The translations under genes were made by a program, and so were the position numbers. DNA of 64,000 bases from Dictyostelium discoideum (taxonomy: Eukaryota), in NCBI GenBank assembly GCA_000004695.1, contig CM000151.3, forward strand, positions 1,824,001 through 1,888,000, read 5' to 3'. A model generated the notes under the pieces. It was not told the DNA's origin, made no database searches, and saw only the letters and a list, made by a program, of their open reading frames with translations. Shown here one piece after another: positions 11,464-63,991 of the stretch; the first letter of the stretch is position 1; each line of letters starts with the position of its first letter.

Positions 11464-12470
11464 ATGTCTACCACTGTTAATAATAATGATGCCTCTAGTA
11501 GTAGTACCTCTGCCTCTAATAGCGCTGAATCCTTTGATTTAAGAATGAAATCAATGGAGGATCAAATCAACAACCTTTCCTTAGCCTTTACAAGATTCAT
11601 GAAAGAACCTATGTTCTCTTCTAATACCAACTCACGTAGCCAACCTTCTCATGATAACTCTGACACCGAGAATGAACAAAGTGAAGATGAATCAAGTAAC
11701 AATGTCGATGTTCCAACCGATTATCAATTATCCGATACCTTACTTGGTCAGTACAAACATATGGTAAACAATAAAGGTTTACTCGTCGAAGAAGAATGTA
11801 TCCTCAAGAAAGATGAGATATCCGAATTGAATAAAGTATTCAACTTTCCATCTAACTTCCAAGTGAATGTCGCTCCATTCGGTACACCTGAAGGTATTAC
11901 TGTATCATCCAACGTCAAGAACAATGATACTGATTGTTGATTGTCGAAAAGCGAATCAACGATAGCTTGAAACCTTTGCTTCTCATGTCAAGTATGTTAT
12001 CATCTGATAGCTCTAATGTCGATGTAGAACTTATTAGTTACTTAACTCAGAGTGCAATCGTCTTAGCCGTTAACGCTCAAGCATCGCTTAGTCGTGTCCG
12101 TCGTAACAACATCGCTAAAGAAATCTATGGTTCTGAAGTACTCTTACCAATTAAGATCAAGGATACACCAAAGATGTTTGATGAAACTGAAACTGAACGT
12201 GTAAGAAAGCTAGCCAAGTCAATCAGAAAGAACAACGAAGCTAAACAATCATTGTTAAAATTGAATTATCATTCCAAGTCCAATGTCAAGAAATCAGTTA
12301 ACTCAAGTGGTAATAACACTACAGGAAACAGTAGTAATAGTAAATCCAGTAGTGGGAGTAATGGCCGATCTAACAACTTCAATGGATCACCAAGTAATGT
12401 TGCATCAGGTAGCAACAATACCAAGTCTGCCAACGGTACCAACAACCGTTTTCAGAAGAACAAGAAGTAA
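11464..12470 (+). CDS. DIRS-1 ORF1 (gag-like), present as two overlapping ORFs (11464..11940 frame 1; 11934..12470 frame 0)
   Basis: Two adjacent ORFs overlap by 7 nt. The products are S/N-rich with no recognisable domain. This may be one gene interrupted by a frameshift. Confidence 0.55.
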
Positions 12471-15384
12471 ACTTACCAGTAGGTGGACGTCTGTTCCACC
12501 ACAAACAAGTTTGGAAAGAATTGGGTCTTCCAAACTTTTGTCAAGAGGTCGTAAATGGATTAAAAGTCCATCTACTTCCAAACTTCAAGCCGATGCCAAA
12601 CCCAATTCCGATTTCAATTCCAGAGGGTCCAAAATCAGATTGCATCACAAAGGAAGTACAAGACTTGTTATTAGACGATGCCATCGAACAAGTACTTCCA
12701 AACCGTTATTCAAAGCGCGTTTTTTACTCCAACGTGTTTACGGTTCCAAAACCTGGAACGAATCTACATCGTCCAGTTCTCGATTTAAAAAGGTTAAACA
12801 CTTACATCAACAACCAATCATTCAAGATGGAAGGAATCAAGAATCTACCATCAATGGTCAAACAAGGTTATTACATGGTAAAACTCGATATCAAGAAAGC
12901 TTACCTCCACGTTTTAGTAGATCCGCAATACAGAGACTTATTTCGCTTCGTGTGGAAAGGTTCGCACTACCGTTGGAAAACAATGCCGTTCGGGTTATCG
13001 ACAGCTCCTCGTATCTTTACAATGTTGTTAAGACCTGTACTTCGAATGTTGAGAGATATCAACGTATCCGTCATCGCATACTTGGACGATCTATTAATCG
13101 TCGGTTCAACAAAAGAAGAATGTTTATCCAACCTCAAAAAGACAATGGACTTACTTGTCAAACTAGGTTTCAAGTTAAATCTAGAAAAGAGTGTTCTCGA
13201 ACCAACTCAATCAATTACATTTCTCGGATTACAAATCGATTCGGTATCAATGAAGCTTCTTGTTCCCAAAGAAAAGAAGAAAAGTGTCATCAAGGAAATA
13301 AGAAACTTTTTAAAACTAGATTGTTGCTCCCCAAGAAAGCTTGCTGGTTTAAAAGGAAAGCTAATCGCACTGAAAGATGCAGTCATCCCTTTCAGACTTT
13401 ACACTCGTCGAACAAACAAGTTTCACTCTCAGTGTCTGACTCTAGCCAATGGAGATTGGGATCAATCATTCCCCATTCCTCAAGAGGTCAAGTCAGAGAT
13501 TTCACATTGGTTAACAGTTCTAAACCAATGGAATGGAAAAGAAATCAGTCTGTTTCCAAGTTACGACTATGTTCTTACAACCGATGCCTCGGAATCAGGT
13601 GCAGGTGCCACACTCAAGAAAGGAAACAAGGTAATCAAAACTTGGTCATTCCAGTGGTCAACAACTCAATCAAACATGTCGTCAAATCGTCGAGAAATGC
13701 TCGCGCTGCTAATGGCCTATCAAGCGCTATGTCAGAAACTGAACAACTGCAAGCTGAAGATCCAAACCGACAATACTACCACTCTCTCATACATCAATCG
13801 CCAGGGTGGTCAGATACAAGATCTCTCAGTTCTGTTCGAACAACTTTGGAAACAATGCCTCAAGAAGAAAGTGAACTTGATTGGAGAGCATATTCCAGGA
13901 TTCTTCAATGTAAAAGCCGACCACCTCAGTCGTCTTTCAGAGATGAATCACAAATCATCGACCAGAGTAATCAAGAGTTACATCTGGCAACTGAAGAAGG
14001 AAGTGTTCAATCGCATCCAACTTCAATTCGGTCAAATACAGATGGATCTGTTCGCATCTCACCTCAACCATCAAACGAACAACTACTCAACAATAAGAAT
14101 GAATGCACTCAACCTCGATTGGAGTCAATGGAAGCAATGTCTGGCCTTTCCACCACCCATTCTTTTGCCTTCTATCCTGGAGAAGATGAACTCATCCAGT
14201 TCGAAGAAGGTTTCTATAATACTGATCTTCCCAATCTGGAGATCAGCAACTTGGTATCCGATGATTCAAGCACAAGTTCCTCGTCATCATCGTCACATGT
14301 TTCCTCAAGTACTGGGAACATTCCAAGAAGTATTGACCAAACAATCAGTAGAGTCGATACCAATCCAGATTCAACAACGTTGGAAGCTGGGGATTATTCA
14401 ACTTTCCAATCTCATGTAATGTCCTTCGCTCGTACAACAAATACAAAAACAGCTGAGCTGTTAATGAAGTCATGGGAACCTTCAACTCTCAAAGTATATA
14501 GCTCCAGTTATACAAGATTCCGCAATTTCTGTACTTTGAACTCTTTGAATCCAGCAAACATTACCTTAGTTGTTTTCATGGATTATCTTACACATCTATT
14601 CAAACACAAACCTCCGTTAGCTTTCTCAACTATTAACGGTCATCGATCTATGTTGAATCAGTTGTTACTCCTTAGGAATCAAACTGATATTGTTAATGAT
14701 CCATTCATTACAAGAATTATGACTGGTATTCACAAGTTGCGTCCTTCATCTGCAAAGTATAAAGAGATATGGGATGCAAATCAAGTATTCAAGCACTTAT
14801 CTACTATCAAAGTCATCCCCAAGTACACATACACTGCGCTATTAAACAAGACACTTGTACTCTGTAAAATGTTTGGTTTAGCAAGATCATCAGACTTGGT
14901 GAAGTGGTCGTTCAAAGGTCTCATTATTACTCCTGACTCAATCAAAGGTCCCGTTATTAATGCTAAAGAACAAAGAAGTGGTATTGTTTCAATCTTAGAA
15001 TTAACATCGTTAGATGATACTAACTCTCAAGTGTGCCCTGTTCGCCACCTTGCAACATACCTTAGAGCATCTAAAGGAAGAAGAAAGCCCCATTCGGGTG
15101 ACTCTGTCTTTATTAAGAATGAAGGTGAACCGCTCCAAGTTAATGATATTAATTCAATTGTACTATCAACACTCTCAAAGTCAGGTATTGATATTGTCAA
15201 GTTCAAATCTCACTCTACCCGTTCCGCTATGGCTTCTCTGCTGTTGTCCAATAACGTTCCGTTCCACGTTGTCAAAAAGATGGGTCGTTGGAAATCAAAC
15301 GATACTGTAGATACCTTCTACGATAAAAGAATCATTGGTGAAAAATCTGGTGGTTTCTTAAATACTGTCGTCCAAATTTCATAA
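12283..15384 (+). CDS. DIRS-1 long overlapping ORF (frame 1, 1033 codons). The C-terminal ~330 aa is a tyrosine recombinase (YR)
   Basis: The C-terminal segment from ~14420 onward reads ...MKSWEPSTLKVYSSSYTRFRNFC ... RHLATYL ... HSTRSAMASLLL ... GRWKSNDTVDTFY, which gives an R..H..R..Y catalytic arrangement. The N-terminal ~2.1 kb overlaps the RT ORF in another frame without stops, a known DIRS-1 peculiarity. Confidence 0.75.
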   Translation: MSRNQLTQVVITLQETVVIVNPVVGVMADLTTSMDHQVMLHQVATIPSLPTVPTTVFRRTRSKLTSRWTSVPPQTSLERIGSSKLLSRGRKWIKSPSTSKLQADAKPNSDFNSRGSKIRLHHKGSTRLVIRRCHRTSTSKPLFKARFLLQRVYGSKTWNESTSSSSRFKKVKHLHQQPIIQDGRNQESTINGQTRLLHGKTRYQESLPPRFSRSAIQRLISLRVERFALPLENNAVRVIDSSSYLYNVVKTCTSNVERYQRIRHRILGRSINRRFNKRRMFIQPQKDNGLTCQTRFQVKSRKECSRTNSINYISRITNRFGINEASCSQRKEEKCHQGNKKLFKTRLLLPKKACWFKRKANRTERCSHPFQTLHSSNKQVSLSVSDSSQWRLGSIIPHSSRGQVRDFTLVNSSKPMEWKRNQSVSKLRLCSYNRCLGIRCRCHTQERKQGNQNLVIPVVNNSIKHVVKSSRNARAANGLSSAMSETEQLQAEDPNRQYYHSLIHQSPGWSDTRSLSSVRTTLETMPQEESELDWRAYSRILQCKSRPPQSSFRDESQIIDQSNQELHLATEEGSVQSHPTSIRSNTDGSVRISPQPSNEQLLNNKNECTQPRLESMEAMSGLSTTHSFAFYPGEDELIQFEEGFYNTDLPNLEISNLVSDDSSTSSSSSSSHVSSSTGNIPRSIDQTISRVDTNPDSTTLEAGDYSTFQSHVMSFARTTNTKTAELLMKSWEPSTLKVYSSSYTRFRNFCTLNSLNPANITLVVFMDYLTHLFKHKPPLAFSTINGHRSMLNQLLLLRNQTDIVNDPFITRIMTGIHKLRPSSAKYKEIWDANQVFKHLSTIKVIPKYTYTALLNKTLVLCKMFGLARSSDLVKWSFKGLIITPDSIKGPVINAKEQRSGIVSILELTSLDDTNSQVCPVRHLATYLRASKGRRKPHSGDSVFIKNEGEPLQVNDINSIVLSTLSKSGIDIVKFKSHSTRSAMASLLLSNNVPFHVVKKMGRWKSNDTVDTFYDKRIIGEKSGGFLNTVVQIS
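12521..14419 (+). CDS. DIRS-1 pol: reverse transcriptase plus RNase H (frame 2). The track 'start' is TTG; the frame is open upstream into the end of ORF1
   Basis: RT motifs PQYRDLFRF, YLDDLLIVG and FLGL are present. RNase H motifs are VLTTDASESGAGATL, QTDNTT and NVKADHLSRL. The frame is offset by -1 from ORF1b, which suggests a gag-pol frameshift. Confidence 0.85.
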   Translation: MGLPNFCQEVVNGLKVHLLPNFKPMPNPIPISIPEGPKSDCITKEVQDLLLDDAIEQVLPNRYSKRVFYSNVFTVPKPGTNLHRPVLDLKRLNTYINNQSFKMEGIKNLPSMVKQGYYMVKLDIKKAYLHVLVDPQYRDLFRFVWKGSHYRWKTMPFGLSTAPRIFTMLLRPVLRMLRDINVSVIAYLDDLLIVGSTKEECLSNLKKTMDLLVKLGFKLNLEKSVLEPTQSITFLGLQIDSVSMKLLVPKEKKKSVIKEIRNFLKLDCCSPRKLAGLKGKLIALKDAVIPFRLYTRRTNKFHSQCLTLANGDWDQSFPIPQEVKSEISHWLTVLNQWNGKEISLFPSYDYVLTTDASESGAGATLKKGNKVIKTWSFQWSTTQSNMSSNRREMLALLMAYQALCQKLNNCKLKIQTDNTTTLSYINRQGGQIQDLSVLFEQLWKQCLKKKVNLIGEHIPGFFNVKADHLSRLSEMNHKSSTRVIKSYIWQLKKEVFNRIQLQFGQIQMDLFASHLNHQTNNYSTIRMNALNLDWSQWKQCLAFPPPILLPSILEKMNSSSSKKVSIILIFPIWRSATWYPMIQAQVPRHHRHMFPQVLGTFQEVLTKQSVESIPIQIQQRWKLGIIQLSNLM

Positions 15385-15480
15385 TATATATATATATATG
15401 ATAATATAAATTAAAAATTTAATTTATTAAATTATATTTTATATTAAATATATATATATATATTAGTCCCATCCCACCCG

Positions 15481-15782
15481 CCCTTAGTCGGAATTCCATA
15501 AATCAAATTGTTTTAGTTTTTAGTGCCACTATTTATACGTTTTTATTTTCTTAAAAATTTAGCAAAACTCAAAAAAATAAGAGTTTTCGACCCTTCACAA
15601 CTTTGTGCATAGTGTCGGTTCGGAATTTTTCAGTTTTTCGACCTTGCGCAATGATCGCGTCATTGTGCCGGTTCGAAATTTTTACTTTTCTTTCGAAAAT
15701 TTTTTATTCTTCGAATGTTCTAGAACATTCTAAAAAATTATCTTAAATATTTGGGAAATTCAAATAAATAAATGTTATTCAT
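15481..15782. repeat. DIRS-1 right inverted terminal repeat
   Basis: Mirror of the left ITR. The inner ends diverge slightly (ggaattccgac versus ttgggaattcc). Confidence 0.85.
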
Positions 15783-16650
15783 AATATATATATATATATT
15801 TAATATAAAATATAATTTAATAAATTAAATTTTTAATTTTATTACTTACAATGATAAAATAAAAATAAAAAATTATTATACAAATACAAATATAATACAG
15901 ATAATAATACAGTTATAATAATAAAAAAATAGTTTATTATATAAAGTAAATTATATATAAATTTCTAAGGAAAAAGGGGAATGAAAGGAAAATATTAAAA
16001 AAAAAAAAATAATTTCTTTATAAATAATTTTTTTTTTTTTTACTGGTTAAAAAAAAAAAAAAAATAAATCAAAATAAAAAACAAATAAATAATTATAAAA
16101 TTAGCCATTAAAAATATCTGTCCTCTCCTATTAATTCTATTTTTATTTTTTTTTGTTGCTTCGGAATTATTTCAAAAAAAAAAAATAAAAACAATCGGTT
16201 TCCAACCGAATCTTTTTTTTTTGTGGATTTTTTTTGGATTTTTTTTTATTTTTTTTTATTTTTTTTTAGATTTTTTTGGATTTTTTTTATCCCTTTTTTG
16301 TTAAATAATGTTGTGAAATTTTAAAAATGAACAAAAAATTGCAGATGAAAAGGTTCATTGCGAATAAAATTATTTTGTTTTATTAAATATTTATTGTAAT
16401 TTGTTTGATTGATTATGAACCATCACAACCGAAAATTCTTTTTTTTAAGTTTAAAAAAAAAAATTATGATTATATGGCAGGAAGCCAATCTCAAAAGTTC
16501 TGGATTTTTTTCAAAAAATAATAAATAAGACCTACATTACACAAAAGTTTTTATTTTTAAAATTTTTTTTCTCGAATAAAACAAGTTATACTTTTTTTTT
16601 TTTCTTTTACTTTTTTTTTATTTTAATAATAAAAAAAATTAAGATTAGAA

Positions 16651-45110: not shown

Positions 45111-49250
<4,140 letters not shown>

Positions 49251-49660: not shown

Positions 49661-50892
49661 TTTGGCTCGAAATCGAACTTTATTTTATTAATAATAACAA
49701 CATTAATTTGTATTTCATTGACTCACTGTAAATCATTCACACCTTCGTTACTATCCTCTTCTTCATCATCATTTTCTTCTTCTTCTTCTTCAAAAAATAA
49801 ATATTTATATTCAATTTCAAGTGTAAACCCAAATATAGAATCAGGTCAAATTGTTTTAGTTATAGACCCATTAACAAATGAAGTTATTAAAAATAAAACA
49901 GTTTATATACCCTATCGTATAATAGATTTATTAGATGTTGATGAGAGTTCAAATAGTGTAAATTTTATTTTTTTTTATTTTTATTTTTTTTTATTTTTTT
50001 ACTTCTCAAAAATTTTACTGACCTTATTTTTTTTTTATTTTTTTATTTTTTTTTTTAGTTATTATTTTTTTGTTTAATTAATGATGCAAAAAATTTATTA
50101 TTATCATTAAATTTAGATACATTTGAATTTAAAGAGATTGGTGGAACTTATGGTGGATGGGATTATACATATGCTAGACAACCTTATATCTTTGTAAATG
50201 ATAATGTATTCTTACCAGCGAAATTATCATTTTATAATGCTACAGGTTTAACAGTACTTCATTGGGATTTCACAGATAAGAATTCAAAGGGTGGATCATT
50301 TAAAGTCATTGAGATTCCAATCGATGATTTCGATGTAGAATCTGGAATTCCATCAATGGGTGGATACGATTATGTGAATGATTTATTATATGTAACTTAT
50401 CAATCTTTAAATGACCTTTCAGAGAATAACTCAACATCAATTGTTTGCTTTAACCCATTCTCAAGTGACACAAATTCAACTCATAAAATTCATACTGGTA
50501 TTACCGATTTAATTCCAGGTTATATTCATTTACTTTTCACTGATCAAAATGAAGGTGGTTCTCTTTATGCTCTTTCAAAATCATTCAATACTCAAAGTTC
50601 AATTGAAGTTTGTAAAATCAATTTCCAAACTAATAATTGTGATCAAATTTTATCAAAAGAAATGGGTGCCTATTATAATAGTTTCGATTATAGACCTTAT
50701 TTCATTGGTGGTCCCCAAAATTCTGATTTAATCCTTTTGGAATTCACTGAAAAAAATGCAAAACCTTTTATAAACTTTCAATCTGTAAATTTATTAACTT
50801 GGAATGAATCTTCTCCAACTTTACTTTCAAATTATTGGACCTCAACTTTTGGTCCAACTTATTTAACTTTTACTTTTTTCGCTTATATTTAA
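49658..50892 (+). CDS. two-exon gene (49658..49957; 50059..50892) for a ~377-aa secreted Ser-rich protein of unknown function
   Basis: The signal peptide is MFGSKSNFILLIITTLICISLTHC. The donor is AGT|GTAAAT at 49958 and the acceptor (T)nAG at 50057-58, both phase 0. Exon 2 is in frame with track ORF 50356..50892 (..FEFKEIGGTYGGWDYTYARQPYIFVNDNVFLPAK..). Confidence 0.65.
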
Positions 50893-51233
50893 AATAATAA
50901 CAATAATAATAATTATATAAATAAAACAAAAAAACAAAAAATAAAAAACCACCAAATTTATTTATATGTTTAAAAAATAAAAAAAACTCTTTTTTTAATT
51001 ATCTTTTATAATATTTTAAATTTAAATTAAAAAGTAAAAACAATTTTTTATTTATTTATTTTAATTTTTTTTTTTAGAAATATATATTTTACAGTTTTTT
51101 TTTTTTTTTTTTTTTATTTATTTTTTTTGTTTTTTTTGTTTTTTTTTTTTTGTTTAGTTCATAATACAGTTTTAATTGTATATATGTAATAATACTATAT
51201 ATAATCTATTTGATTTCTTGATAGCTAAACTAT

Positions 51234-51548
51234 TTAAAAGAAGTGACCATGGTGATGACCGTGGTGGTGACCGTGGTGGTGATGGTGACCAGTTTCATAG
51301 ACGACTGTGGTAGTTGGATAAACCATTGGTTGTGGGACCATAACTGGAGCGCCCATCATTGGTGGTGGGACCATAACTGGAGCACCCATCATTGGTGGTT
51401 GACCGTAGATTGGCATTGGTTGAACCATTGGTTGGACCATTGGTTGGACCATTGGGACGACTGGAGCACCATAAACGCCGGTGGTGTAGGTAATGGTATC
51501 ATGATGGTGATGACCGTGATGACCGTGATGATGATGATGATGACCCAT
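51234..51548 (-). CDS. small histidine-rich protein (104 aa): HGHH-repeat termini flanking a P/V/Q/M-rich core; family member 1 of 3 in the window
   Basis: MGHHHHHHGHHGHHHHDTITYTTG...VQPMVQPMVQPMPIYGQPPMMGAPVMVPPP...ETGHHHHHGHHHGHHHGHFF. It has an ATG start and a compact non-AT-rich ORF. Confidence 0.7.
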   Translation of the reverse strand: MGHHHHHHGHHGHHHHDTITYTTGVYGAPVVPMVQPMVQPMVQPMPIYGQPPMMGAPVMVPPPMMGAPVMVPQPMVYPTTTVVYETGHHHHHGHHHGHHHGHFF

Positions 51549-52170
51549 TTTGTATATATTTATATGTGTAAAATTTTATTTGTTTAAATAATGTGAAAGA
51601 AAAAAAAAAAAATTGAAAAAAAAAAAAAAATTGTTTTTATATTTATTTTATTTTTTTTTTATTTTTTCTATTTTTTTTTGAGAAATTAAAAAAAAAAAAA
51701 ATAAAAAAAAATAAAAAAAAAAAAATATTTTTAACGCCCTTAGCGATCTCTTGTTTTTTCTGGTGACTTGTAAAATTAAACAAAAAATAAAACTTATCTT
51801 TATTTTTCATTATTTTTTATTTTTTTTCCCATATTTTTTAAAAATAATTCGAAAAAAATAATTATTACATATTATAATAATATGTAGTAAAAAGAAAAAA
51901 AAAAAAAAAAAAAATTGATGTTTTTTAAAAAGTGGTAAAATTTTGTGTGGTTTGAATTATTACCACTTTTAAAATAAAAATAAACTTAAATTTAGTTTTT
52001 ATTTTTCAAATAATAAAATAAAATGAAATAAAATAAAATGAAAAAAACAATAAAATAAATAATAAAATTATAAAGGTAATTTTAGATGCAATATAAAATT
52101 TATTTTATTTTAATACATTTTATTACATTATATTTTAATTTATTATTTGTTTTATTTTATTATTTTTTTT

Positions 52171-52422
52171 TTAATTACTTTCAATATTATGATATCCTCC
52201 ATTGCCATTAATTTTTTTGATGGATTTACTAAATTCAATATTTAATGTTAGATTTGAAAATTCATAAAAGAATGTCACCATATATGCAAATATAGATAAT
52301 GCCGACATAATTTCAAAAATTGCTGCCAAGTTATCGATAAAAAATTGTGTAATAATATCTTAAATAAAAAATAAAATTAAATATTAATATATTTATATAA
52401 AAAAAAGAAAAGAGAAAACAGG

Positions 52423-52466
<44 letters not shown>

Positions 52467-53131
52467 AATATAAAAATTAAAACTTACAACCAATAAATAA
52501 ACAAGATATACAAATTAATATTTTTCTAATTATTAAAACTTTCAAAGGAATATCACTTGAATTTTTAATATCTAGTATAGTTTGAGTTAATAAATAAATA
52601 AAACCACATAAAAAAAACAATGCTGCAAAGATAACATGAACAAGGTTTGCGTTATGAAATTGAAAAGATGATACACCATGCATTGATAAACCACTAATGA
52701 ATCCCATTGATGTTGAAAATCTATTGAATCTTAATTCTTTTTTCTCTTTTTTATCATCAAAATATTCCTTTTCAATTATATTATTCTTTATAATTAAATG
52801 TTTAATAAATACCACAATAATCATTAAAAATGCTATAATTGATAATCCAAATGTTCCAATACAACTTTCTTTTTTTTTTTTTAAAAAAAATAAAAAAAAA
52901 AACAATTAGAATTTTTGTTTAATGATAACTCAATGATTAAATTATATTTCATTTATATATATACATACCTGGGGCAAAATCGATTGTATCACTTATATAT
53001 GGAATAATTTGATCATCATCTCCACGTACTTCAGTTATAGCATATGTGGTGATGAATGTAATCGGAACAATTAAAGATATTATACATAATATATAAAAAG
53101 GTTTTATTTGTGTAGTTTTTGATGAAATCAT
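52171..53131 (-). CDS. DRAM/Frag1/TMEM150-family multi-pass membrane protein, 3 exons (53131..52969; 52868..52488; 52358..52171), ~243 aa
   Basis: The family-diagnostic N-terminal motif IIPYISDTIDFAPG (PYISDTG-like) follows TM1. Donors are GTATGT and GTAAGT, acceptors (A)nAG and TTTAAG, and both introns are phase 1. Hydrophobic segments run throughout. Confidence 0.75.
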
Positions 53132-53261
53132 GAAAAAAAAAAAATAATTAATTAAGCATTTGAAAAAAAAAAAAAAAAATTAACTAAAAAAAAAAAAAAT
53201 TGAAACAGAGTTCCACCTTTTCAACAAATTTTGAAAAAAAAAAAAAAAAATTAAAATCCAA

Positions 53262-53410
53262 TTCCACCGAGTATTATTTAATTATTTAATTATTTAATTA
53301 ATTATTCTGGTAATTCAAATAAAAATTAAAATACAATTACACCGAGTATTATTTAATTATTTAATTATTTAATTGTTTATTCTGGTAATTCAAATAAAAA
53401 TACAATTGAT
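53262..53410. repeat. tandem duplication of a ~72-bp unit (ccaccgagtattatttaattatttaattatttaatt...ctggtaattcaaataaaaat...acaatt)
   Basis: Two adjacent near-identical copies are seen directly. Confidence 0.7.
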
Positions 53411-54091
53411 GATGACAAACCAATAATGAAATCAAAAATGAATCCAAAAAGAATAATATAAATTTTATTTTATTTATAATTTTATTCTCAAACAATTTTA
53501 ATTATTTAGATTAATCTATTATTTTAGATCTAAAATAAAAATAACATTCCCACCAAAAACAATGATTGAGTATGTATAAAAATGATTATTTTGAGTGGAT
53601 TTGTGTTTAAAATATAATATAATAAATTTTGTACTTGTTTTTAATAATCATTTTTAAAAAATATATTTTTTTTTTTCTTTTATTATATTATTATTTATTT
53701 TTTTAATATTTTTTTTATTTTTTAATTTTTTATATAATAATAAATATTTTTGTTTTTTTTATTAAGTGTGTGATTGGGAATTTAAATTATAATTTAAATT
53801 ATATATAAATTAAAAATATAAACACTTCTCATAAACTACTTTTTATGGCAATGGGTGAAAAAAAAAAATAATATTCATTTAATTAAAAAAAAACACACCC
53901 TAAAAAAGTTTAATATGAATAAATAGTATTTCAATATGATGAAAGAAACATCGAGTGGTGAGTGTGGTAAACTTAACACAGTGTTTAATAAACATGATGA
54001 GAAATATTGAAAATCATACAACAAAACTGATAAATTACTAGGATGTGTGAGTGTGTTGAAAAACATTTTCAATAAATAATGTGATTATTTT

Positions 54092-54127
54092 TTAATTCAA
54101 TATTGAAGCATTACCTTATTATTATTA

Positions 54128-54158
<31 letters not shown>

Positions 54159-54290
54159 CAATATTGAAGCATTACCTTATTATTATTATTTTTTTTTTTT
54201 TTATTTATAATTTTTTTTTATTTATTCCTAATCATAACACTATAAATATTTATATTTTTTTTATTATTGAAGCTTTACATTATTATTTTA
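54092..54290. repeat. direct repeats of ~45 bp (ttaattcaatattgaagcattaccttattattattatttttt): two good copies plus a degenerate third
   Basis: Seen directly at ~54092, ~54153 and ~54262. Confidence 0.6.
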
Positions 54291-54398
54291 AATATATTTT
54301 TTTTTAATTGATTTTTATTTTAAATCATAAACATTAATAATAAATTAATAAACACATTCTCAAAAAAAAAAAATTTTAATATTAAAAAAAAATCAAAA

Positions 54399-56673
54399 AT
54401 GAAAATTATTATATTATTTTTTATATTATATTTAGTTTCTGTTACGCTCGGAGTTTTAATTGAACCAGTTTTCAAGGGCAAATATTTAATATTTAAAAAT
54501 AATTTTAAAAATTCTTTTGATGGCAATCTAATTCACCATTATTATCAGATACACATGCCAACACTTGACCATGTAAATTTTTAGCAATATCAATTGTCAT
54601 GACAGCAGCGCATGTTCTTGTTGTGCTATTATTTTTACATTCAAAAACCAAGTCATAGATAAAATCTTGAAAATTTCATTTTTGAAAATATGTACTATCA
54701 ATATCATATGTATATTCCAATGATTGTTTTGTAATTTTAAAATCTGAAATTAAAATAAAATTATTAGAAAAAATTAGTGTTGGAGATATCGATATCTTTT
54801 AAAAAAACACAATGTATCGACAAATGATTTATCCTATTTAGTTTTTTATCGACTCAATTTTTAAAAACAAATAAAATGAGGTAGTTATTAATTTTAAATT
54901 ATTTTGTTAAAAAAATGCAACTCTTTTTTTTTTTTTTAGGTAATCCTTTAGGTGACTCAATAGATGCTACAAATTTATTACTCGATTATAAAGGTGGTTG
55001 TGGTACGAGAATAATTCAGTGGCCAAACGGTTATAAATATAGCTTTAATCATTCTAATCCAGTAATTGATAATATCTCTATTGAAAGCTCATCTTTTATA
55101 TCACTTGGTCATAATTTTTGTAATAGTCCCGAGTCAATTCAAGTTTATTTAGATGGTGTTCAAATTGATAAATCAAAAATAAAATAAAATCAATTGATCA
55201 TGAACAATTTGAAATTATTTACAGTCAAGAACATTCAAAATCCATCATTGTGAAAATTGTCTCTGGTGGACTTGAATCAAACAAATTCAAATTAGACTAC
55301 AAACCAATGCCATTAAAAATTAATAGTGTTCCAAGATTAAAAGGTGGTTCAATTACAATAATTGGTGAAAGATTATCATCACAAGTAAATAATTCAACAA
55401 TCATTGTTAAAATTGGTCAATATGATTGTAAAAATGTAATCTCATCAAAAAATGAAATTCTATGTAATTTAGAATCGGTTTCAAATGTTGAAAAAGTCAA
55501 ATTGGTAGATTTACCAGTTAATATCTCAATAAATGGCATTTTTAATGAAAATAATTTATTATTCTCATTCGATACTCCAATAATATCAGATTTTATACTT
55601 CCTCAAGGTGAAGTTAAATTAGTTGGCCATTGTTTTGGTTATTCACAAATAACTCAAATTAATATTGACAATGTATTACAATCCAACATAACAATTAATA
55701 TAAATGAAAAAGAAACAACACTTTTATTTAAGCCAATTCTTCCAATTAAAAAATCAAAGTTATATATAATTGTCAATGGTACAAAATCAAATACTATTGA
55801 AATTGATTCATCATTTTTTGTAAAAAGTGTTCCATCATCACCTTCAGTAAATGGCCAAACTGTAAACTTTACACTTTTCAATATAAACACAAATAATTTT
55901 AATGCAACACCAATTATGACTTTTCAAGATAATAGTTCAATTAAATCAACTGATTATAAAAATTCAAATGAATATTCCACTCATATATACTCTTTTGAAA
56001 TTCCAAAAAGTTGTGGTAGAAATGAAATTACAATAAACAAGTTTACAATTGTTCATTTATAAAATATAAATCTATCTCTTGTGATATTAAATTAGAAGGT
56101 CCGTTTGATCAACTTTGTAAAATCAAATTTAATGGTAAAGATGAGGAGAACAACATTTCAATATCATATTATCCTCCATTAGTATTAAATTCAACAACGA
56201 TTTCAAATTCATCGATTGGTGGAATTATTACAATTTTTGGTAATGAATTTTATAATGAAATTGATTTAATTACAGTTGGTAAAAGCAAATGTTTAAACTC
56301 TACATTTATAAATTCAACATCAATTTCATGTTTTGTGGAACCTTCAAATTTTATTATTAATCAAGCCAAACAACAACAACAACAACAATATGTTAACATT
56401 ACAATTAATGGTAAAAGTGGTGGCAATAATTTAAATATTTATTTTGATAATTCATTTATTGAAGTTAAAAATTAATCAAGCGAAAATGATAAAAACAACA
56501 ACAACAACAACAATGGTAGAAATAAAATTAATGATGATAGTAAAACTGATGGTAGAAGTTTGTATGAAAAATATAAAAAATATTTTATAGCACCTATAAT
56601 AATCGTTAGTTTGTCATTAATTATAGTTGCCTTTAAACTTATACTTTACTTTAATAGAAAAAATGGGCTGTAG
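54399..56673 (+). pseudogene. IPT/TIG-domain cell-surface protein pseudogene (Tgr/Tiger-like architecture: signal peptide, several IPT/TIG repeats, TM, short tail), disrupted by at least 2 frameshifts and an in-frame stop before the TM segment
   Basis: The signal-peptide ORF is 54399.. (MKIIILFFILYLVSVTLG). IPT-like modules read GGSITIIGERLSS...CKNVISSKNEILCNL and [44 protein letters not shown]. The coding segments 54915..55187, ~55196..56062 and ~56040..56475 lie in three different frames with no GT..AG introns between them. A TAA at ~56473 is followed in the same frame by ...YFIAPIIIVSLSLIIVAFKLILYFNRKNGL* (TM plus tail). Confidence 0.5.
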
Positions 56674-56747
56674 TCTATTGGAAATATATTATAAAAGAGA
56701 AAATAAAAAAATTTAAAAATAGAAAAGAGCAAAAATGTATAGATGGT

Positions 56748-57083
56748 ATGAGAGAAATATTAAATAATGCAGAGAAAAATTTTCCTGACATAAAATTAGA
56801 TAATGTAATAACTTATAAAAAGTATAAAATGCCACAAGAAAAAAGTGTAGAAGGAGAACTAAAAGAACAAGCACCTCCTCTAAGTGAATATGACCAATTT
56901 CCAAGTTATTATTTACATTCACCAAAAGATTCACAACCTTCAAATCAAATTGAAACTTTACCAAAAGATTCACCTCCTCCAAATCAAAATGAAAAATTAA
57001 CAGAAGATTCATTACCACCTTCAAATCAAATTGAAACGTTACCAGAAGATTCATCACCACCTCCAAATCAAACTGAAAAATAA
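56748..57083 (+). CDS. hypothetical small protein (111 aa) with tandem P/S/Q-rich ~12-aa repeats (SQPSNQIETLPKDS / SLPPSNQIETLPEDS)
   Basis: Track ORF. The repeats are seen directly. It could instead be an additional degraded tail fragment of the upstream pseudogene. Confidence 0.3.
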   Translation: MREILNNAEKNFPDIKLDNVITYKKYKMPQEKSVEGELKEQAPPLSEYDQFPSYYLHSPKDSQPSNQIETLPKDSPPPNQNEKLTEDSLPPSNQIETLPEDSSPPPNQTEK

Positions 57084-57293
57084 CAGACAATTCATCATCT
57101 CGAGATGGACCATCAAGCTCTTCATAATTTCTTTTTTTTCTTTACTGGACCACTTTCTGTATTTTTAATAATTACAGATTGGAACCCACCAAAGCTATTA
57201 CTATTATTATTATTGTTGTTGTTGTTGTTATTATTTGTAGTATTCATACCACTTGCAAGATCTGCTAATGGGTCAAATACCATTGGTTTATTA

Positions 57294-57531
57294 TTAATCG
57301 ATTAAAGTTGGTTGTTGTTGTTGGGATGATTGGAAATTTGGTGTTGCTGGTGAAGGTCCACTTCCACTTGCTGCTCTTGGTCTACTTCTTTCGCCAGATG
57401 CTGCATTTGGATTATTTTGGATATGTATTATATAATCCAAAAGCCATAAAAAAAAAATAAAACTCACCTGCTCTATTACTATAATTTTCATATTCTGCTC
57501 TAGTATTACTATATGGATCCGAATCATATGA

Positions 57532-57581
<50 letters not shown>

Positions 57582-57884
57582 AACCTTCATCTCTACCATT
57601 GAAAGAGTCTCTTCTGGTTGTTTCTCTTTGGTTACCACCATATGAATATCTTTGGTTACCACCATATGAATCTCTTTGATTACCACCATATGAATCTCTT
57701 TGATTACTACCATATGAATCTGAATCATAACCACCACCATATGAGCCACCTCCATAACCAAAGTCACTGTTATCATTACCAATACCAACATATTTATTTT
57801 GGTTAGTCTTTGCTTTATCTCTTTCCTCTTTAATTCTTTGATCATCTTGTAATAAATCAATAACTTGTTTTGCTCTTTCACGAA
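57294..57884 (-). other. orphan 3' gene fragment: two exons (57884..57468, 57400..57294) encoding an ENTH-domain-like terminal helix followed by SYGGNQRD repeats, poly-N and a C-terminal tail; no possible start codon upstream
   Basis: The correct frame (not the track frame) reads ..VRERAKQVIDLLQDDQRIKEERDKAKTNQNKYVGIGNDNSDFGYGGGSYGGGYDSDSYGSNQRDSYGGNQRDSYGGNQRYSYGGNQRETTRRDSFNGRDEGYGN(12)SYDSDPYSNTRAEYENYSNRAG | AASGERSRPRAASGSGPSPATPNFQSSQQQQPTLID*. The donor is GCAG|GTGAGT and the acceptor TGCAG. The upstream acceptor is TTTTAAAAG at ~57886. The 165 bp between this exon and the stop of the next minus-strand gene contains no ATG on the minus strand. Confidence 0.5.
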
Positions 57885-58059
57885 CTTTTAAAATAAATTG
57901 TTTATTTAAAAAAATATTTTGTTATTATGTGAATTCAATTTTTAAAAAATAATGAAAAAAAAAAAAAAAGGATGTAAATATTGATGATAATACTAAACTT
58001 TAAACAAAGGATCTTTTAATAAAAAAAAAGACACAAACCACTTTTTTTGTTTTTTTAAT

Positions 58060-59429
58060 TTATTTTGAATTAATTAAAAGATTATAAACTACAAATGATT
58101 TGGTTTGATCTTTTTTAAAATTAGGAATACTTTCAATTGCTTTTACGATTTGAGCTTCAGATATTTTAAAACCCATTTGATTAATAAAGAATTCGACAAT
58201 ATAAAATTGATCCCAACTAATAGCATGTTCCAATAATAAAGATAATTCTTTTTGAGTGTAAATTGAATTATTATTTGAAAGTTTCTTTGTTAAAACTCTA
58301 CGATATTGTTGATCATAAAATAAATGTTGAATTATTCTTAACCAACCATTTTTAATTACACCCTTTAAAAATTCGAATAGAGTTTCTTTGGCACTTTCAA
58401 TACTCACTTCAAAATCGGTACCATCAAATATTGGAAAATAAAATTCATTTAATAGTTTACATAATAAATTGATATCACCACTTTTTTTTACCCAATCTAA
58501 TAATTCCAAAATAACTTGATAATAGGGAGATGGATAACGTGGAATTCGATAATTATTTTCAAAAATCCATTTATTATTAATTTTATCATTTGAGAATATT
58601 GATTTTATACTATTATTATTATTATTATCTAATTTATTTGATATGAATAAACCAATATAATAACCTTTTGAAATTGTAAATCTACCAGATATTAAATCTT
58701 CATATCTAAAATTAAACATCCAATCAAGTAATTTAATTTTATTTGAATTCATATAATTATCATTTAAATGATCATTAAATTCCATTCTATTATTAGTTTT
58801 ACTAAGGATGGTTATTATATCATCAATATCTAATCTTGGATTTCTATTGATTTCTAAATAATGTGTAATTGCATCTTCTGTATATTTATAAATTCCAATT
58901 GGTTTATTAATTATATATGCTGCTGTTTTAATTAAATTTGATCTTTCAAAATTACTGTTATTTTCTTCAAGAATATTTTTTGAAAATGGTAATAATAAAT
59001 CTATATTACTATTGCTATTATTATTATTATTATTATTATTATCACTACTATTACTATTATTATTATTAGTAATTCCTAATAATTGTTCAAATCTTTCTAA
59101 TAAATCAATTCTACCTAGTGAATACCATGATACCATATCTTGAACTCTTTTAAAGAAACTATTTAAATGGTGAAAACAATAATCTAACATTTTAATTGAT
59201 TTAATATGTCTATGAAAATATGAAAATGATGAAAGGTATCCCTGATGTAATGCCATCATTGACTCTTTTTCAAGTACTTTTATTATATTAGAACAATTAT
59301 TATTAACAATACTATCCTCACCACCATATCCTTTAATTGCGATTTCAAGTAACTCTAAATCATCATATGATATTAATAAATGAAATATTGTGAATACTGA
59401 TAAATTTGACCATTCCTTATTCTTATTAT

Positions 59430-59525
<96 letters not shown>

Positions 59526-60034
59526 GATCATTTATTGCATTATTTATAAATTGAATTCTTTGTTTTTTACTATGACAATTTGAAAATAAAATATATGGAT
59601 ATTCTTCACCATGATTACTAACAGATTTGAAATTTTTAAAAATAGGTGGTAACACTTTTGAATCACCATAATGGTTAACTATAAATTTAAATAATTCGTA
59701 ATTTCCATACTCTAATGAAATAATTAAAAAGTATTCCCTTGGATATGGACTAGATGGAAGATGTGCTTTAAATATATCTTTATCAAAATCTAAATTAAAT
59801 ACTATTCTAATTTCAATTTGTTGAATAATTGTTCTACGAATTGGACTTTTTTCTTCACAAAAATCAATTAACTTTTTAATATTTGCTGTAGTTTGTTGAT
59901 AATTATTATTATTACTATCTTCATCATTTATTAACTTTGGTATTATTGATTTTATTTGAAGTTTAAGTTGAGAATTTGATAATTTTGATTTAATTTCATT
60001 AATTAATGGTACAATCAAATTTAAATCATCATTG

Positions 60035-60075
<41 letters not shown>

Positions 60076-60567
60076 TATATATGAAATTGAATAACAATAA
60101 TTTATTAAATCATTAATTGTAAATTTAGTTATATTAGTGGTACTTTTAATATTTATTTTAATTAAATCATCAAAAAGATTTTTTGTAACTACAGAAGATT
60201 GTAAAAAAAGGTAATTTAAAAATTTATATCTTTTTGGCGGATTTGAACGATGAGAATTTCCATTTGATTGGTTTATTAATAAATTTGTTAATAAACCTTT
60301 AATAATACAATTAGTTTTATCAGTATAAGTTTCCCAAAAATATTTAAACATTTTTAAATGTGAATGTATATTTATTAAATTTAAAATGTTTACCAACGAT
60401 TGTTCTTTTATTTTCCCATTTTTAGGTCCAAATTTACAATAGTTAAAATAATTATCTAATAAAACTTGAAATCCTTGAAAATTACCCACCTCTATTAATT
60501 CTTTTAAAACTTTTTTAAAACTAATAAAATATTTACCATAATTTCTAAATAACAATTCAAAGAATTC

Positions 60568-60666
<99 letters not shown>

Positions 60667-61245
60667 TGTTGGTGCATTTGTTTCTTTTTTATTTGATTTA
60701 TATTCTTTTTGAATATTAATAAATATATTTAAATACCATTCGGATTGTGGACAACGACCATCATAATAATAATTTCCAATTATTGGTTCATTTCTTTTGA
60801 TTTTATCTTTTAATAAATTTAAATAACCATTATTTAAAATCCAATCAATGTAAATTAAATCATCATATGAGTGATATTTACAATTTAAATTACCAAATAT
60901 GGTTTTAAATAAGATTTTATTTTTAAAAACTCTCCAAAATAATTGTTCATGTTTTTCAATATCTTTGATTGGTAATTGATAAATGCTACTATTAAATTTA
61001 TTAATTAATTTCTCTTTTGTTAATTCTTGTTTAATATTTCTTGAATCGTTCACAAATTTCTTTATTCTTTCAATTATTTCACTTTTTCTACCATTTGCTT
61101 TTAATTTTAATGTTTTTGCAACTTTTATTAATTCTCTACTTGATTTTGATTCTAATGATTCCATATCAATATCTTCTTTATTAGTGTCTAAATTATTTAT
61201 ACTATCATTCTCTTTTTTAAATTCATCTGTCTCATTATTTATCAT
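58060..61245 (-). CDS. lineage-specific SAP-domain protein (1061 aa) with poly-N tracts; paralog of 45111..49250
   Basis: The N-terminal SAP motif is SRELIKVAKTLKLKANGRKSEIIERIKKFV. The shared family motif is EQLFWRVFKNKILFKTIF. The ORF is unspliced with an ATG at 61245. Confidence 0.8.
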
Positions 61246-61679
61246 TTCAATTCAAAGTTTATTTGGGGTGGAATTGAAAAAAAAAAAAATGATCAAAAAA
61301 AAAAAAAAAAAGTAAAATAAAAAAAAAAAAAAATAATGAAAATAAAAAAAATTTAAGAATTAATTTAAAAAAAAAAAAATATTAAAGATCTAAAATAACC
61401 ACGATATTAAAAACACCCGACGATAACCCATACTGCCATCTCTTCATTTACTGTACCAAAATCAGACACATTATAATATTCCGATTCTCTCTGAAAACAT
61501 TTGTAACAATACCCGCAATCCTCATTTACCATCCACAACACATTAAAACAAAAGTGGAGCTCTCTACACATTAACACTTCCTTCTCCCTCATTAACTACA
61601 AACTAAAACATTACACTCTAAAACAAAAATTAAATAACAAACAATAAGCAAAGGAATATTACCTTACATTAGAAATTTA

Positions 61680-62350
61680 TTTATTTTTTATTAATTAAAA
61701 GATTATAAACTACAAATGGTTTAGCTTCATCTTTTTCAGAATTTATAATTGCCTTTGCGATTTGAGGTTCAGTTATTTTAAACCCATTTGATCAACAAAG
61801 AATTCGGCAATATAAAATTGATCCCAACTAATAGCATGTCTCAATAATAAAGATAATTCTGTTTGAGTGTAAATTGAATTATTACTTGAAAGTTTCTTTG
61901 TTAAAACTCTACGATATTGTTGATCATAAAATAAATGTTGAATTATTCTTAACCAACCATTTTTAATTACACCCTTTAAAAATTCGAATAGAGTTTCTTT
62001 GGCACTTTCAATACTCACTTCAAAATCGGTACCATCAAATATTGGAAAATAAAATTCATTTAATAGTTTACATAATAAATTGATATCACCACTTTTAAAA
62101 GCCAATCGATGTCATTTATATCATCATATGAGTGATATTTACAATTTAAATAATTAAATATGGTTTTAAATAAAATTTTATTTTTAAAAACTCTCCAAAT
62201 TCTTTCAATTATTTCACTTTTTCTACCATTTGCTTTTAATTATAAAGTTTTTGCTACTTTTGTTAATTATTAACCAGATTTTGATTCTAATGATTCCATA
62301 TCAATATCTTCTTCATTATTATTATAATCTGTCTCATTATTTATCATTTA
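61680..62350 (-). pseudogene. mosaic relic copy of the adjacent SAP-domain gene: 3' ~450 bp plus two short internal pieces plus 5' ~200 bp (including start-codon region and upstream flank), collapsed by internal deletions
   Basis: Track ORF 61773..62105 (MAFKSGDINLLCKLLNEFYFPIFDGTDFEVSIESAKETLFEFLKGVIKNGWLRIIQHLFYDQQYRRVLTKKLSSNNSIYTQTELSLLLRHAISWDQFYIAEFF...) is >90% identical to the C-terminus of 58060..61245. The DNA then continues with matches to ~60830..60960 and ~61060..61265 of the parent locus. Confidence 0.7.
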
Positions 62351-62872: not shown

Positions 62873-63127
62873 TTAAAAGAAATGACCATGATGTCCGTGG
62901 TGTCCATGGTGACCATGATGACCATGATGGTGGCTAGTTTCGATGACAACATTGGTTGGTGGATAAACTACTGGAGCACCCATAACGACTTGTGGTTGAA
63001 CCATCATTGGTGGTTGACCATAAACTGGCATTGGTTGAACCATTGGTTGGACAATTGGGGTAGTTGTGTAAGTAACGTGTTCGTGGTGACCGTGATGACC
63101 GTGATGATGATGACCGTGTGGAGGCAT
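62873..63127 (-). CDS. small histidine-rich protein (84 aa), family member 2
   Basis: MPPHGHHHHGHHGHHEHVTYTTTPIVQPMVQPMPVYGQPPMM...ETSHHHGHHGHHGHHGHHGHFF. It has the same architecture as 51234..51548. Confidence 0.7.
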   Translation of the reverse strand: MPPHGHHHHGHHGHHEHVTYTTTPIVQPMVQPMPVYGQPPMMVQPQVVMGAPVVYPPTNVVIETSHHHGHHGHHGHHGHHGHFF

Positions 63128-63721: not shown

Positions 63722-63991
63722 TTAGTGGTGACCATGATGACCGTGGTGGTGATGATCATGATGACCATGATGGCCATGGTGATGATGATGTCCATGGTGG
63801 TGACCAGTTTCTAAGACAATTGTAGCTTGTGGATAAACTACTGGTGGTTGAACATAAACTGGTTGGACAACTGGTGGTGGTGCATAAATTGGTTGAACAA
63901 CTTGTGGTGGTGCATAAACTGGAGTGATTGTAATATGTTCATGGTGACCATGGTGACCATGGTGATGATGATGATGACCGTGTGGAGGCAT
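63722..63991 (-). CDS. small histidine-rich protein (89 aa), family member 3
   Basis: MPPHGHHHHHHGHHGHHEHITITPVYAPPQVVQPIYAPPPVVQPVYVQPPVVYPQATIVLETGHHHGHHHHHGHHGHHDHHHHGHHGHH, with an ATG at 63991. Confidence 0.7.
   Translation of the reverse strand: MPPHGHHHHHHGHHGHHEHITITPVYAPPQVVQPIYAPPPVVQPVYVQPPVVYPQATIVLETGHHHGHHHHHGHHGHHDHHHHGHHGHH

Follow-up and report, generated by a model that had tools for sequence, protein, structure and literature searches.

A small reading frame on the minus strand of Dictyostelium discoideum chromosome 2, split over two exons and lying directly downstream of a SAP-like gene, raises the question of whether it is a gene, a detached part of one or the remains of one. 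An earlier note had described its exons, with a GTGAGT donor, a CAG acceptor and consistent phase, and its SYGGNQRD repeats; all of these are present in the 64-kb stretch of DNA that was analysed (hereafter the window), at the positions listed in Table 1. The note took the frame for the orphaned 3' part of a gene of the epsin type, whose 5' part had been displaced by a SAP-family gene, or which was a pseudogene piece. We consider that it is probably a non-functional, unprocessed, intron-containing pseudogene fragment of a gene of the epsin/EpsinR family.

Table 1. Features in and around the epsin-like fragment, in positions of the window.
Feature	Positions	Strand	Remarks
Lineage-specific block	53146..58055	not applicable	~4.9 kb; on D. 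discoideum chromosome 2, absent at the syntenic D. citrinum locus; holds the epsin-like fragment and a Tgr-like pseudogene
Tgr-like gene (IPT/TIG, Ig_TgrO1)	54399..57083	plus	convergent with the fragment; Pfam PF24612 (E = 1.8e-12) and PF01833
Out-of-frame continuation of the ancestral coding sequence	57125..57295	minus	NNKPMVFDPLADLASGMNTT(N)11SNSFGGFQS...KKKKKL, stop 57122..57124; open in the third frame
Fragment, exon 2	57294..57400	minus	ASGERSRPRAASGSGPSPATPNFQSSQQQQPTLID and TAA stop (57294..57296); coding 57400..57297, 35 codons, ASGERSRPRAASGSG...PTLID
Fragment, intron	57401..57467	minus	67 nt, GTGAGT...TGCAG
Fragment, exon 1	57468..57884	minus	139 codons, phase-1 start; translation (V)RERAKQVIDLLQDDQRIKEERDKAKTNQNKYVGIGN...NRA
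Helical part of exon 1	~57772..57884	minus	last ENTH helix and the next helix; rest of the exon Gly/Tyr-rich low-complexity, with SYGGNQRD repeats and a poly-Asn run
Tandem repeat in exon 1	57623..57721	minus	24 nt x 4.1 copies, 94% matches, TRF score 170; encodes SYG(S/G)NQR(D/Y/E)
Spacer, SAP-like stop codon to fragment acceptor	57885..58059	minus	SAP 3' flank, may retain part of the ancestral upstream intron; ends in TTTTAAAAG
SAP-like gene	58060..61245	minus	intact 1061-aa ORF, upstream of the fragment
Internally deleted SAP copy	61676..62327		on the 5' side of the SAP-like gene

Homology and exon structure of the fragment

The two exons encode a conceptual product of 174 aa. When its N-terminus was compared with the PDB (phmmer), matches were obtained with CLINT1 (2qy7, E = 2.4e-7), epsin 4 (1xgw, E = 6.6e-7) and Ent3 (3onk, E = 3e-3), and an exhaustive HMMER search of 1.84 billion representatives returned 463 matching proteins at E ≤ 1e-3, the best with 60 bits. 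These matches bear out the resemblance to the last helix of an ENTH domain that had been noticed before, and by its sequence this stretch, the first 38 residues, is the helix that closes an ENTH domain of the EpsinR/CLINT1 type. Human CLINT1 (EpsinR or epsin 4; 2qy7, 2v8s and 1xgw) and yeast Ent3 (3onk) are the best matches among solved structures; residues 1-38 align in every case to the final 38 of the crystallised construct, which are residues 109-146 of the 147-residue 2qy7 chain and residues 139-176 of the 176-residue 1xgw chain, and the part matched consists of the last ENTH helix and a basic helix with KYVG at its end. The residues of the homologue P0003 that match the fragment sit in helices 123-138 and 140-162 of its AlphaFold model. 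Pfam (hmmscan) assigned no family to the 174-aa product at E ≤ 1, ENTH (PF01417) included; in a full homologue the Pfam ENTH domain covers residues 23-143, of which no more than the final 18 fall in the segment that matches the fragment. Unlike CLINT1 and Ent3, the fragment is without the membrane- and SNARE-binding ENTH body. As only one ENTH element is left, none of the known activities of the ENTH domain can be inferred for it.

Along its tail, the fragment is collinear with full-length epsins of the amoebozoan type. It aligns to P0116, an epsin of 672 aa, in three successive pieces that lie in three frames (residues 130-268, 293-330 and 348-375), of which the second, from exon 2, stops at the position of the clathrin-box-like LLD/LID and the third lies beyond the stop codon. 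The same order of parts is shared by the fragment, P0116, P0200 (523 aa) and the L001 gene: a DVGLS/VRERAKQ helix (slash, splice junction), KYVG(I/V)G, Gly/Tyr-rich repeats, RPRA(A/P)(S/T)G, LLD/LID and FG.FQS. Exon 1 is 41% identical to P0116, while its identity to P0001/L001 is 76% over the first 40 residues and 44% to L001 over the first 123.

The intron is indicated by a stop codon that the exon-1 frame meets inside it, by a frame change of +1 across it and by its two flanks, both of which align to the homologues in the expected order; exon 2 has RPRAASG, compared with RPRAATG in P0116, RPRAPSG in L001 and RPRAASG in L005. A processed pseudogene was rejected, since this intron and the acceptor of the preceding one are retained. 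From base composition, the chance of the open frame in exon 1 is about 5e-7. Codon usage is native, with a GC3 of 0.086 that equals that of the neighbouring gene, and a horizontal origin was rejected on this ground. A frame of 139 + 35 codons that is still open and has native codon usage indicates that the decay is recent or that some constraint persists. A second, meaningless frame (ORF 57881..57294, 195 aa) is open over the entire fragment, including the intron.

Truncation at the 5' and 3' ends

On the minus strand from 58059 to 57885, that is, back to the stop codon of the SAP-like gene, no ATG was found in any frame, and the exon-1 frame holds no in-frame ATG, GTG or TTG. The earlier description of a phase-1 acceptor with no room for a start codon, and of an orphan 3' piece unable to start translation alone, is thereby confirmed. 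The upstream boundary of exon 1 reads ...TTTTAAAAG/TT. In the full L001 gene a phase-1 intron precedes VRERAK at exactly the same codon and phase (G/TG, Val, versus x/TT), and the read-through ORFs of many other genomes break at this position. Judged from these comparisons, the acceptor marks an intron position conserved in distant homologues, and the 5' break therefore lies inside the ancestral intron or at the 3' end of this intron. The spacer has a GC content of 14%, typical of local non-coding DNA, and aligns weakly with the intergenic region between SAP and Frag1 in D. citrinum.

At the other end, 57268..57182 aligns to residues 348-375 of P0116 in a frame offset by 1 from that of exon 2, and the out-of-frame stretch has a counterpart in L001 (...LLTIDDVFSAP...FGAFQS). 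Since homologous coding sequence continues in the other frame to about 57182, the stop at 57294 is the product of a frameshift and not the ancestral end. The same out-of-frame sequence is carried by an independent assembly (L003). The only clathrin-box-like site is a truncated LID at the position of the frameshift. The NPF and DPW motifs present in P0116, P0200 and L001 were not found in the fragment, in which homologous sequence ends at about 57182, and the distal tail, about 300 aa of P0116, is without a counterpart. In contrast to P0116, then, the fragment is frameshifted and lacks residues 1-129, the entire ENTH body, as well as residues ~376-672 with NPF, DPW and a Met/Gly/Gln/Pro-rich end. 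As a functional gene it fails on the absence of a start codon and on a frame that is broken relative to the homologues at ~57295.

With this truncation at both ends and the frameshift, a pseudogene piece is the best of the readings proposed earlier, and the fragment is presumably not expressed as protein. It represents the surviving middle of an epsin gene, namely the exon that opens with the final ENTH helix, a Gly/Tyr-rich linker, the small intron and the RPRAASG...LID segment. A break inside, or at the 3' limit of, the ancient intron before the VRERAK exon has cost it the ENTH body and the start codon, the frameshift at ~57295 creates the present stop, and the distal tail, where homologues carry the NPF/DPW motifs and the Met/Gly/Gln/Pro-rich end, is gone.

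The block absent from D. citrinum and the search for a parent gene

Three ORFs of the window are identical to AX4 proteins encoded on the 8.48-Mb chromosome 2 of D. discoideum. The locus was compared with its D. citrinum counterpart (L002) by blastn. Positions 61246..58056 of the window correspond to 10000..13086 of L002 and positions 53145..50025 to 13564..16421, and in L002 only 477 bp lie between the two syntenic segments. The edges of the D. discoideum block are approximate, because the flanks are AT-rich and of low complexity. No epsin homology was found in L002 by tblastn. In D. citrinum, a SAP orthologue lies between the same His-rich genes and Frag1; Frag1 is directly next to it, and neither epsin nor Tgr sequence follows SAP. 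As the orthologue occupies the same position, a SAP-like gene is ancestral at this locus, and the fragment and the decayed Tgr gene constitute a lineage-specific element. Either an insertion in D. discoideum or a deletion in D. citrinum would account for the block, and the fragment would have arrived with, or survived in, this DNA, immediately 3' of a SAP-like gene that is ancestral and intact. Only low-complexity repeats were found at the block, with no tRNA genes or transposon features, and the search for flanking repeats or target-site duplications yielded nothing convincing, only a 75%-identical A-rich pair.

When the Tgr-like gene was translated in three frames, its frame was seen to switch near 55180, 56065 and 56665, and to be interrupted by a TAA near 56473. 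Disrupted by three or more changes of frame and by an in-frame stop codon, it is a pseudogene, and its disruption density (~1.9 per kb) is similar to that of the fragment (~1.6 per kb). The junctions and the frameshift recur unchanged in an independent D. discoideum assembly of 99.6% identity. Misassembly and sequencing error were rejected on the strength of this agreement. Within the fragment the two assemblies differ by one nonsynonymous SNP, which is too few for a selection test.

Tblastn with human CLINT1, P0002, the reconstructed ENTH of L001 and P0116 detected the known fragment alone, and no ENTH body, in the window (6 kb upstream, 57 kb downstream). The full-length epnA-like parent expected by the earlier note did not emerge either: word-index and exhaustive HMMER searches of public proteomes found no close parent, the best identity being at most 64% over short stretches, although both have blind spots. 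The word-index search with the fragment, which is not exhaustive and also missed P0116, returned only two short non-Dictyostelium matches. None of the 463 HMMER matches exceeded 64% identity or was Dictyostelium-like, but a parent could hide behind a 50%-identity cluster representative in that collection. The ENTH domain of L001 as query gave no dictyostelid matches, metagenome scans with protein and degenerate DNA patterns for RERAKQVIDLLQDD gave no match, and no search returned a D. discoideum ENTH protein. To the extent of these searches, the fragment does not seem to be a recent copy of any annotated protein visible to them, and the lack of a close parent in public proteomes is awkward for a recent duplication. 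To our knowledge, epnA is the sole ENTH gene of D. discoideum; this epsin gene would be the obvious candidate parent or paralogue.

Like unprocessed pseudogene fragments in segmental insertions, the fragment has kept its intron and an intron acceptor, has lost both ends, is frameshifted, has a decayed neighbour and is absent from the syntenic site in the sister species. It is unlike them in that the searches yielded no donor locus, and it might just as well be all that is left of a gene lost in place.

Relation to the SAP-like gene

The SAP domain of the 1061-aa ORF is weak and under the Pfam cut-off (E = 2.3e-4; 21.2 bits vs 23.9). The D. citrinum orthologue, P0078, is 57% identical over its full length and has its own stop. 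A protein search with the SAP-like query returned this orthologue but neither an AX4 protein nor a 1212-aa protein.

The public annotation of the sister assembly GCA_054883475.1 has a single gene over exactly 61245..57294, with a product of 1212 aa. This could reflect a young chimeric gene, in which SAP-like transcripts run past their stop codon and a phase-1 donor at 58130 is joined with the acceptor at 57885, in an alternative or the main isoform. The last 23 SAP residues would then be swapped for a 174-aa epsin-derived tail, composed of one helix and a disordered Gly/Tyr/Asn-rich region. We regard such a gene as unlikely. The phases of donor and acceptor do agree, the spliced product is uninterrupted and has 1212 aa, and the frame of the fragment is still open. 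However, there are 94 ways of reaching 1212 aa with one or two introns, and 1781 with up to three; in one of them, a lone intron of 313 nt leads into the fragment in the meaningless frame. The annotation is a gene prediction and not RNA evidence, and it also bridges the frameshifts and the stop of the Tgr pseudogene with improbable introns. As for the donor, both D. discoideum assemblies have the GT at 58130, which D. citrinum and the internally deleted SAP copy lack, yet the final 480 nt of the SAP-like gene contain 13 phase-1 GT sites, so a compatible donor is expected by chance. The phase-compatible candidates, at 58130 (GTATTC) and 58197 (GTCGAA), depart from the form GTA..T that is found in all 12 unambiguous introns of the neighbouring genes. 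Moreover, the native C-terminus and stop of the SAP-like protein are conserved between D. discoideum and D. citrinum. Exact look-ups in protein collections retrieved neither of the two reconstructed 1212-aa fusions, and the 1061-aa ORF, the small His-rich ORFs and the 195-aa ORF were likewise absent.

That the SAP-like gene has taken up the fragment as additional 3' exons, in a read-through fusion at an early, species-specific stage, is a rather improbable outcome. If true, it would yield a nuclear-type SAP-family protein with an epsin-derived helix and a prion-like Gly/Tyr/Asn-rich tail, and a real fusion transcript would be a dated example of exon capture, of wider interest. The fragment has no start of its own; that it has no way at all to be expressed is countered by the phase-compatible GT sites in the SAP gene and the sister-assembly annotation that joins both.

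The displacement proposed earlier, by which the insertion or duplication of a SAP-family gene would have removed or displaced the 5' part of an epsin-like gene once intact here, is very unlikely. The fragment does lie directly against the SAP-like gene on its 3' side, and the local duplication that the note had pointed out is real, as seen from the internally deleted copy. This duplication, however, is on the other (5') side of the SAP-like gene, no ENTH remnant occurs in the 6 kb upstream covered by the window, and D. citrinum has the SAP gene at the same position, with the same neighbours and no epsin. It is hardly credible that the fragment is the 3' part of a working gene with distant ENTH exons, joined over a very long intron holding the SAP gene or by trans-splicing, or that its junction is an assembly artefact: the open frame, native codon usage, well-placed acceptor and lack of another copy in protein databases would fit, but there is no ENTH-like sequence 6 kb upstream or 57 kb downstream, the twelve introns resolved in neighbouring genes measure only 71-181 nt, the frameshift and the missing distal tail speak against an intact gene, and the arrangement is identical in the second assembly.

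Most likely, then, we are dealing with an ordinary pseudogene fragment of an epsin-family gene, which matters mainly for annotation, as it is not to be called as a gene. Merging it with the SAP-like gene needs RNA evidence; such a merger seems to have been made in at least one public annotation. The locus, where a SAP gene is duplicated in part and a 4.9-kb block has no counterpart in D. citrinum, is a small, recently rearranged spot on chromosome 2, which could serve as a marker for structural evolution in the D. discoideum species complex.

Structure and origin of the epsin-type fragment

Once the 67-nt intron is removed, the two minus-strand exons form a single continuous frame (Table). Exon 1 begins right after TTTTAAAAG, and because two bases (TT) then complete the codon, the acceptor is in phase 1. 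Across the 175 nt that separate this acceptor from the stop codon of the 1061-aa SAP-like gene, no ATG was found in any frame, and the exon-1 frame lacks an in-frame ATG, GTG or TTG. The earlier note had described well-formed exons with a GTGAGT donor and consistent phase, a phase-1 acceptor, an ATG-free upstream region and SYGGNQRD repeats; since each of these was recovered in the sequence, the description was accurate. The chance probability of the 139-codon open frame, calculated from base composition, is about 5e-7, and its GC3 (0.086) equals that of the neighbouring gene. A second frame, which reads as Met/Val/Ile-rich nonsense, stays open through both exons and the intron between them; this is probably an accident of composition.

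Coordinates of features in the window
Feature	Position	Strand	Remarks
Fragment, exon 1	57884..57468	-	
SYGGNQRD repeats	57623..57721	-	24-nt unit, 4.1 copies
Fragment, intron	57467..57401	-	67 nt, GTGAGT...TGCAG
Fragment, exon 2	57400..57297	-	
Fragment, stop TAA	57296..57294	-	ends exon-2 frame
P0116 residues 130-268	57891..57466	-	tblastn
P0116 residues 293-330	57389..57297	-	tblastn
P0116 residues 348-375	57268..57182	-	tblastn; past the stop
Second-frame ORF	57294..57881	-	195 aa
SAP-like gene	58060..61245	-	1061 aa
Tgr-like gene	~54399..57083	+	signal peptide at 54399, TIG, Ig_TgrO1, transmembrane segment near 56590
SAP-side flank	61246..58056		aligned with L002 10000..13086
Frag1-side flank	53145..50025		aligned with L002 13564..16421
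A-rich direct repeats	53113..53160 / 57935..57982		75% identical, 4822 bp apart
Partial SAP-like copy	61676..62327	-	internally deleted
Small His/Gly-rich proteins	63722..63991; 62873..63127; 51234..51548	-	
1379-aa ORF	45111..49250	+	
1033-aa ORF	12283..15384	+	in GC-rich island (GC ~0.40)

The suggested resemblance to the last ENTH helix held up: residues 1-38 of the fragment match the last 38 residues of crystallised ENTH constructs of human clathrin interactor 1/epsin 4 (2qy7, residues 109-146 of a 147-residue chain, E = 2.4e-7; 1xgw, residues 139-176 of a 176-residue chain), with weaker alignments to yeast Ent3 and classical epsins. Pfam found no ENTH domain in the fragment itself, and in a full homologue the Pfam ENTH profile stops 18 residues into the homologous segment. 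In an AlphaFold model of homologue P0003, this segment comprises the last ENTH helix (123-138) and the long helix that follows (140-162). Among 1.84 billion representatives searched exhaustively with HMMER, 463 matched at E <= 1e-3, many of them full-length ENTH proteins in which the match begins at residue 125-140.

Two of the matches, the full-length amoebozoan-type epsins P0116 (672 aa) and P0200 (523 aa), and an epsin gene reconstructed on Logan contig L001 have a common layout, starting with ENTH ...DVGLS|VRERAKQ... and proceeding through KYVG, Gly/Tyr-rich repeats, RPRA(A/P)(S/T)G and an LLD/LID clathrin-box-like site to NPF/DPW motifs. The tail of the L001 gene carries NPF-type motifs and DPW, and P0116 and L001 additionally have FG.FQS and a Met/Gly/Gln/Pro-rich end. 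The L001 intron before VRERAKQ falls in the same Val codon as in the fragment and in an identical phase (G|TG in L001, x|TT in the fragment), and in many unrelated genomes ORFs called straight through the intron break at this point. By sequence comparison, the phase-1 intron directly preceding the VR(E/N)RAK helix appears to be an ancient intron conserved among ENTH genes, and the shared codon, phase and break place the 5' break of the fragment within this intron or at its 3' end. The site lies at 57885/57884 in the window, at 868/908 in L001 and near 6130-6184 in L005; read-through ORFs place it identically in distant eukaryotes, fungal Ent3-like genes among them.

A tblastn search with P0116 gave three alignments, in order. 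The third lies beyond the stop and in a frame different from that of the second, and thus a frameshift has created the present stop; losing 2 bp in GAT-TTA-AAT would be one way to produce it. The coding sequence continues out of frame (NNKPMVFDPLADL...SFGGFQS...) to 57125 (-), and a convergent plus-strand gene terminates at 57083. No counterpart of P0116 residues 1-129 and ~376-672 was detected in the window by tblastn, and four different queries found no ENTH body anywhere in its 64 kb. With the ENTH body and 3' tail missing and a frameshift at the stop, the pseudogene piece proposed earlier is the best reading. We consider it probable that the fragment is an unprocessed epsin-family pseudogene, truncated 5' at an intron and frameshifted and truncated 3', located within a lineage-specific block whose genes are decaying.

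D. discoideum has an epsin, epnA. A word-index protein search for a close parent returned none, only two short foreign matches, although it also overlooked P0116; the exhaustive HMMER search, which displays only 50%-identity cluster representatives, gave none above 64% identity and none Dictyostelium-like. Either a parent is hidden or unannotated, or the fragment is all that is left of a paralogue that was lost in place.

The block between the SAP-like and Frag1 genes

Three ORFs of the window are identical to the D. discoideum AX4 proteins DDB_G0272530, sphingosine kinase A and DDB_G0272512, which map to chromosome 2 (8.48 Mb). The SAP-like gene has a weak SAP-domain match, under the Pfam cut-off, and a full-length D. 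citrinum orthologue (P0078, 57% identity). The D. citrinum locus (L002) reads His-rich genes, SAP orthologue, 477 bp, Frag1 gene; between the aligned flanks the window carries ~4.9 kb (58055..53146), and no epsin homology was found in L002. The SAP-like gene keeps a conserved C-terminus and stop in AX4, in D. citrinum and in a partial SAP copy. It follows from the aligned flanks, the epsin-free locus and the retained C-terminus that the SAP-like gene is ancestral here and the block a lineage-specific element. This contradicts the earlier note's idea that insertion of the SAP-like gene displaced the 5' part of an epsin gene. The block is either an insertion in D. discoideum or a deletion in D. 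citrinum; a search for transposon features in it found none. A low-complexity A-rich repeat pair roughly brackets it and may be due to chance.

A Tgr-like gene (Ig_TgrO1, E = 1.8e-12, and TIG) lies in the block as well; its reading frame changes at least three times and is interrupted by one in-frame stop, which amounts to about 1.9 disruptions per kb. As the fragment has a similar density (one per ~0.63 kb), its still-open 174 codons need no special explanation. In the GC-richer organism of L001, a TIG-domain gene (2863..3410, +) follows the full epsin gene; the adjacency recalls the pair in the window, although the orientation differs. Either coincidence or old synteny could explain it.

The merged 1212-aa gene model

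A second D. discoideum assembly (GCA_054883475.1, L003) is 99.6% identical to the window across 20 kb, with six SNPs and zero indels in 61245..57294. It repeats the junctions and the frameshift, which rules out misassembly and sequencing error. The two assemblies differ by an indel at 56667, where one Tgr frame change is located.

The main rival reading, which we consider unlikely, is that the fragment and the SAP-like gene form a young chimera. The annotation of GCA_054883475.1 has a single gene running from the SAP ATG to the stop of the fragment, with a 1212-aa product, and an in-frame solution of exactly this length exists: donor 58130 (AAA|GTATTC, phase 1), acceptor 57885 and the 67-nt intron join SAP residues 1-1038, Ile and 173 fragment residues. 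However, 94 one- or two-intron combinations yield the same length, among them a single 313-nt intron (58197..57885, donor GTCGAA) that reads the fragment in a meaningless alternative frame, which happens to be open as well. The exact in-frame product was not found in the protein collection, the last 480 nt of the SAP-like gene contain 13 phase-1 GT sites, all 12 uniquely solved introns in neighbouring genes use GTA..T donors, and the same annotation makes a 605-aa protein from the Tgr-like pseudogene. For these reasons the merged annotation is weak evidence of a SAP–epsin gene. The GT at 58130 is D. discoideum-specific, as would fit a chance occurrence or a novelty alike. The fragment is of little interest if no such chimera exists.

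Neighbouring sequences

The partial SAP-like copy, missing from the D. citrinum locus, consists of two 5' pieces and the last ~410 bp, 77-84% identical to the D. citrinum orthologue; its 3' piece is 91% identical to the 3' end of the neighbouring SAP-like gene. Small His/Gly-rich proteins of one family (MPPHGHHHH... or MGHHHHHHGHH... starts, ...HGHFF ends), conserved in D. citrinum, lie on both sides of the locus; the one copy scanned (62873..63127) had no Pfam match. The N-terminal LFWKV(I/F)KNK(F/I)LF of the 1379-aa ORF is common to the SAP-like gene and paralogue P0079, which points to a local cluster formed by one Asn-rich gene family. Between the two assemblies, this ORF has zero SNPs and the SAP-like gene 1.6 per kb. 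The gene in L004 corresponding to the 1033-aa ORF has reverse transcriptase, RNase H and phage-integrase (tyrosine recombinase) matches, suggesting a DIRS-type retrotransposon.
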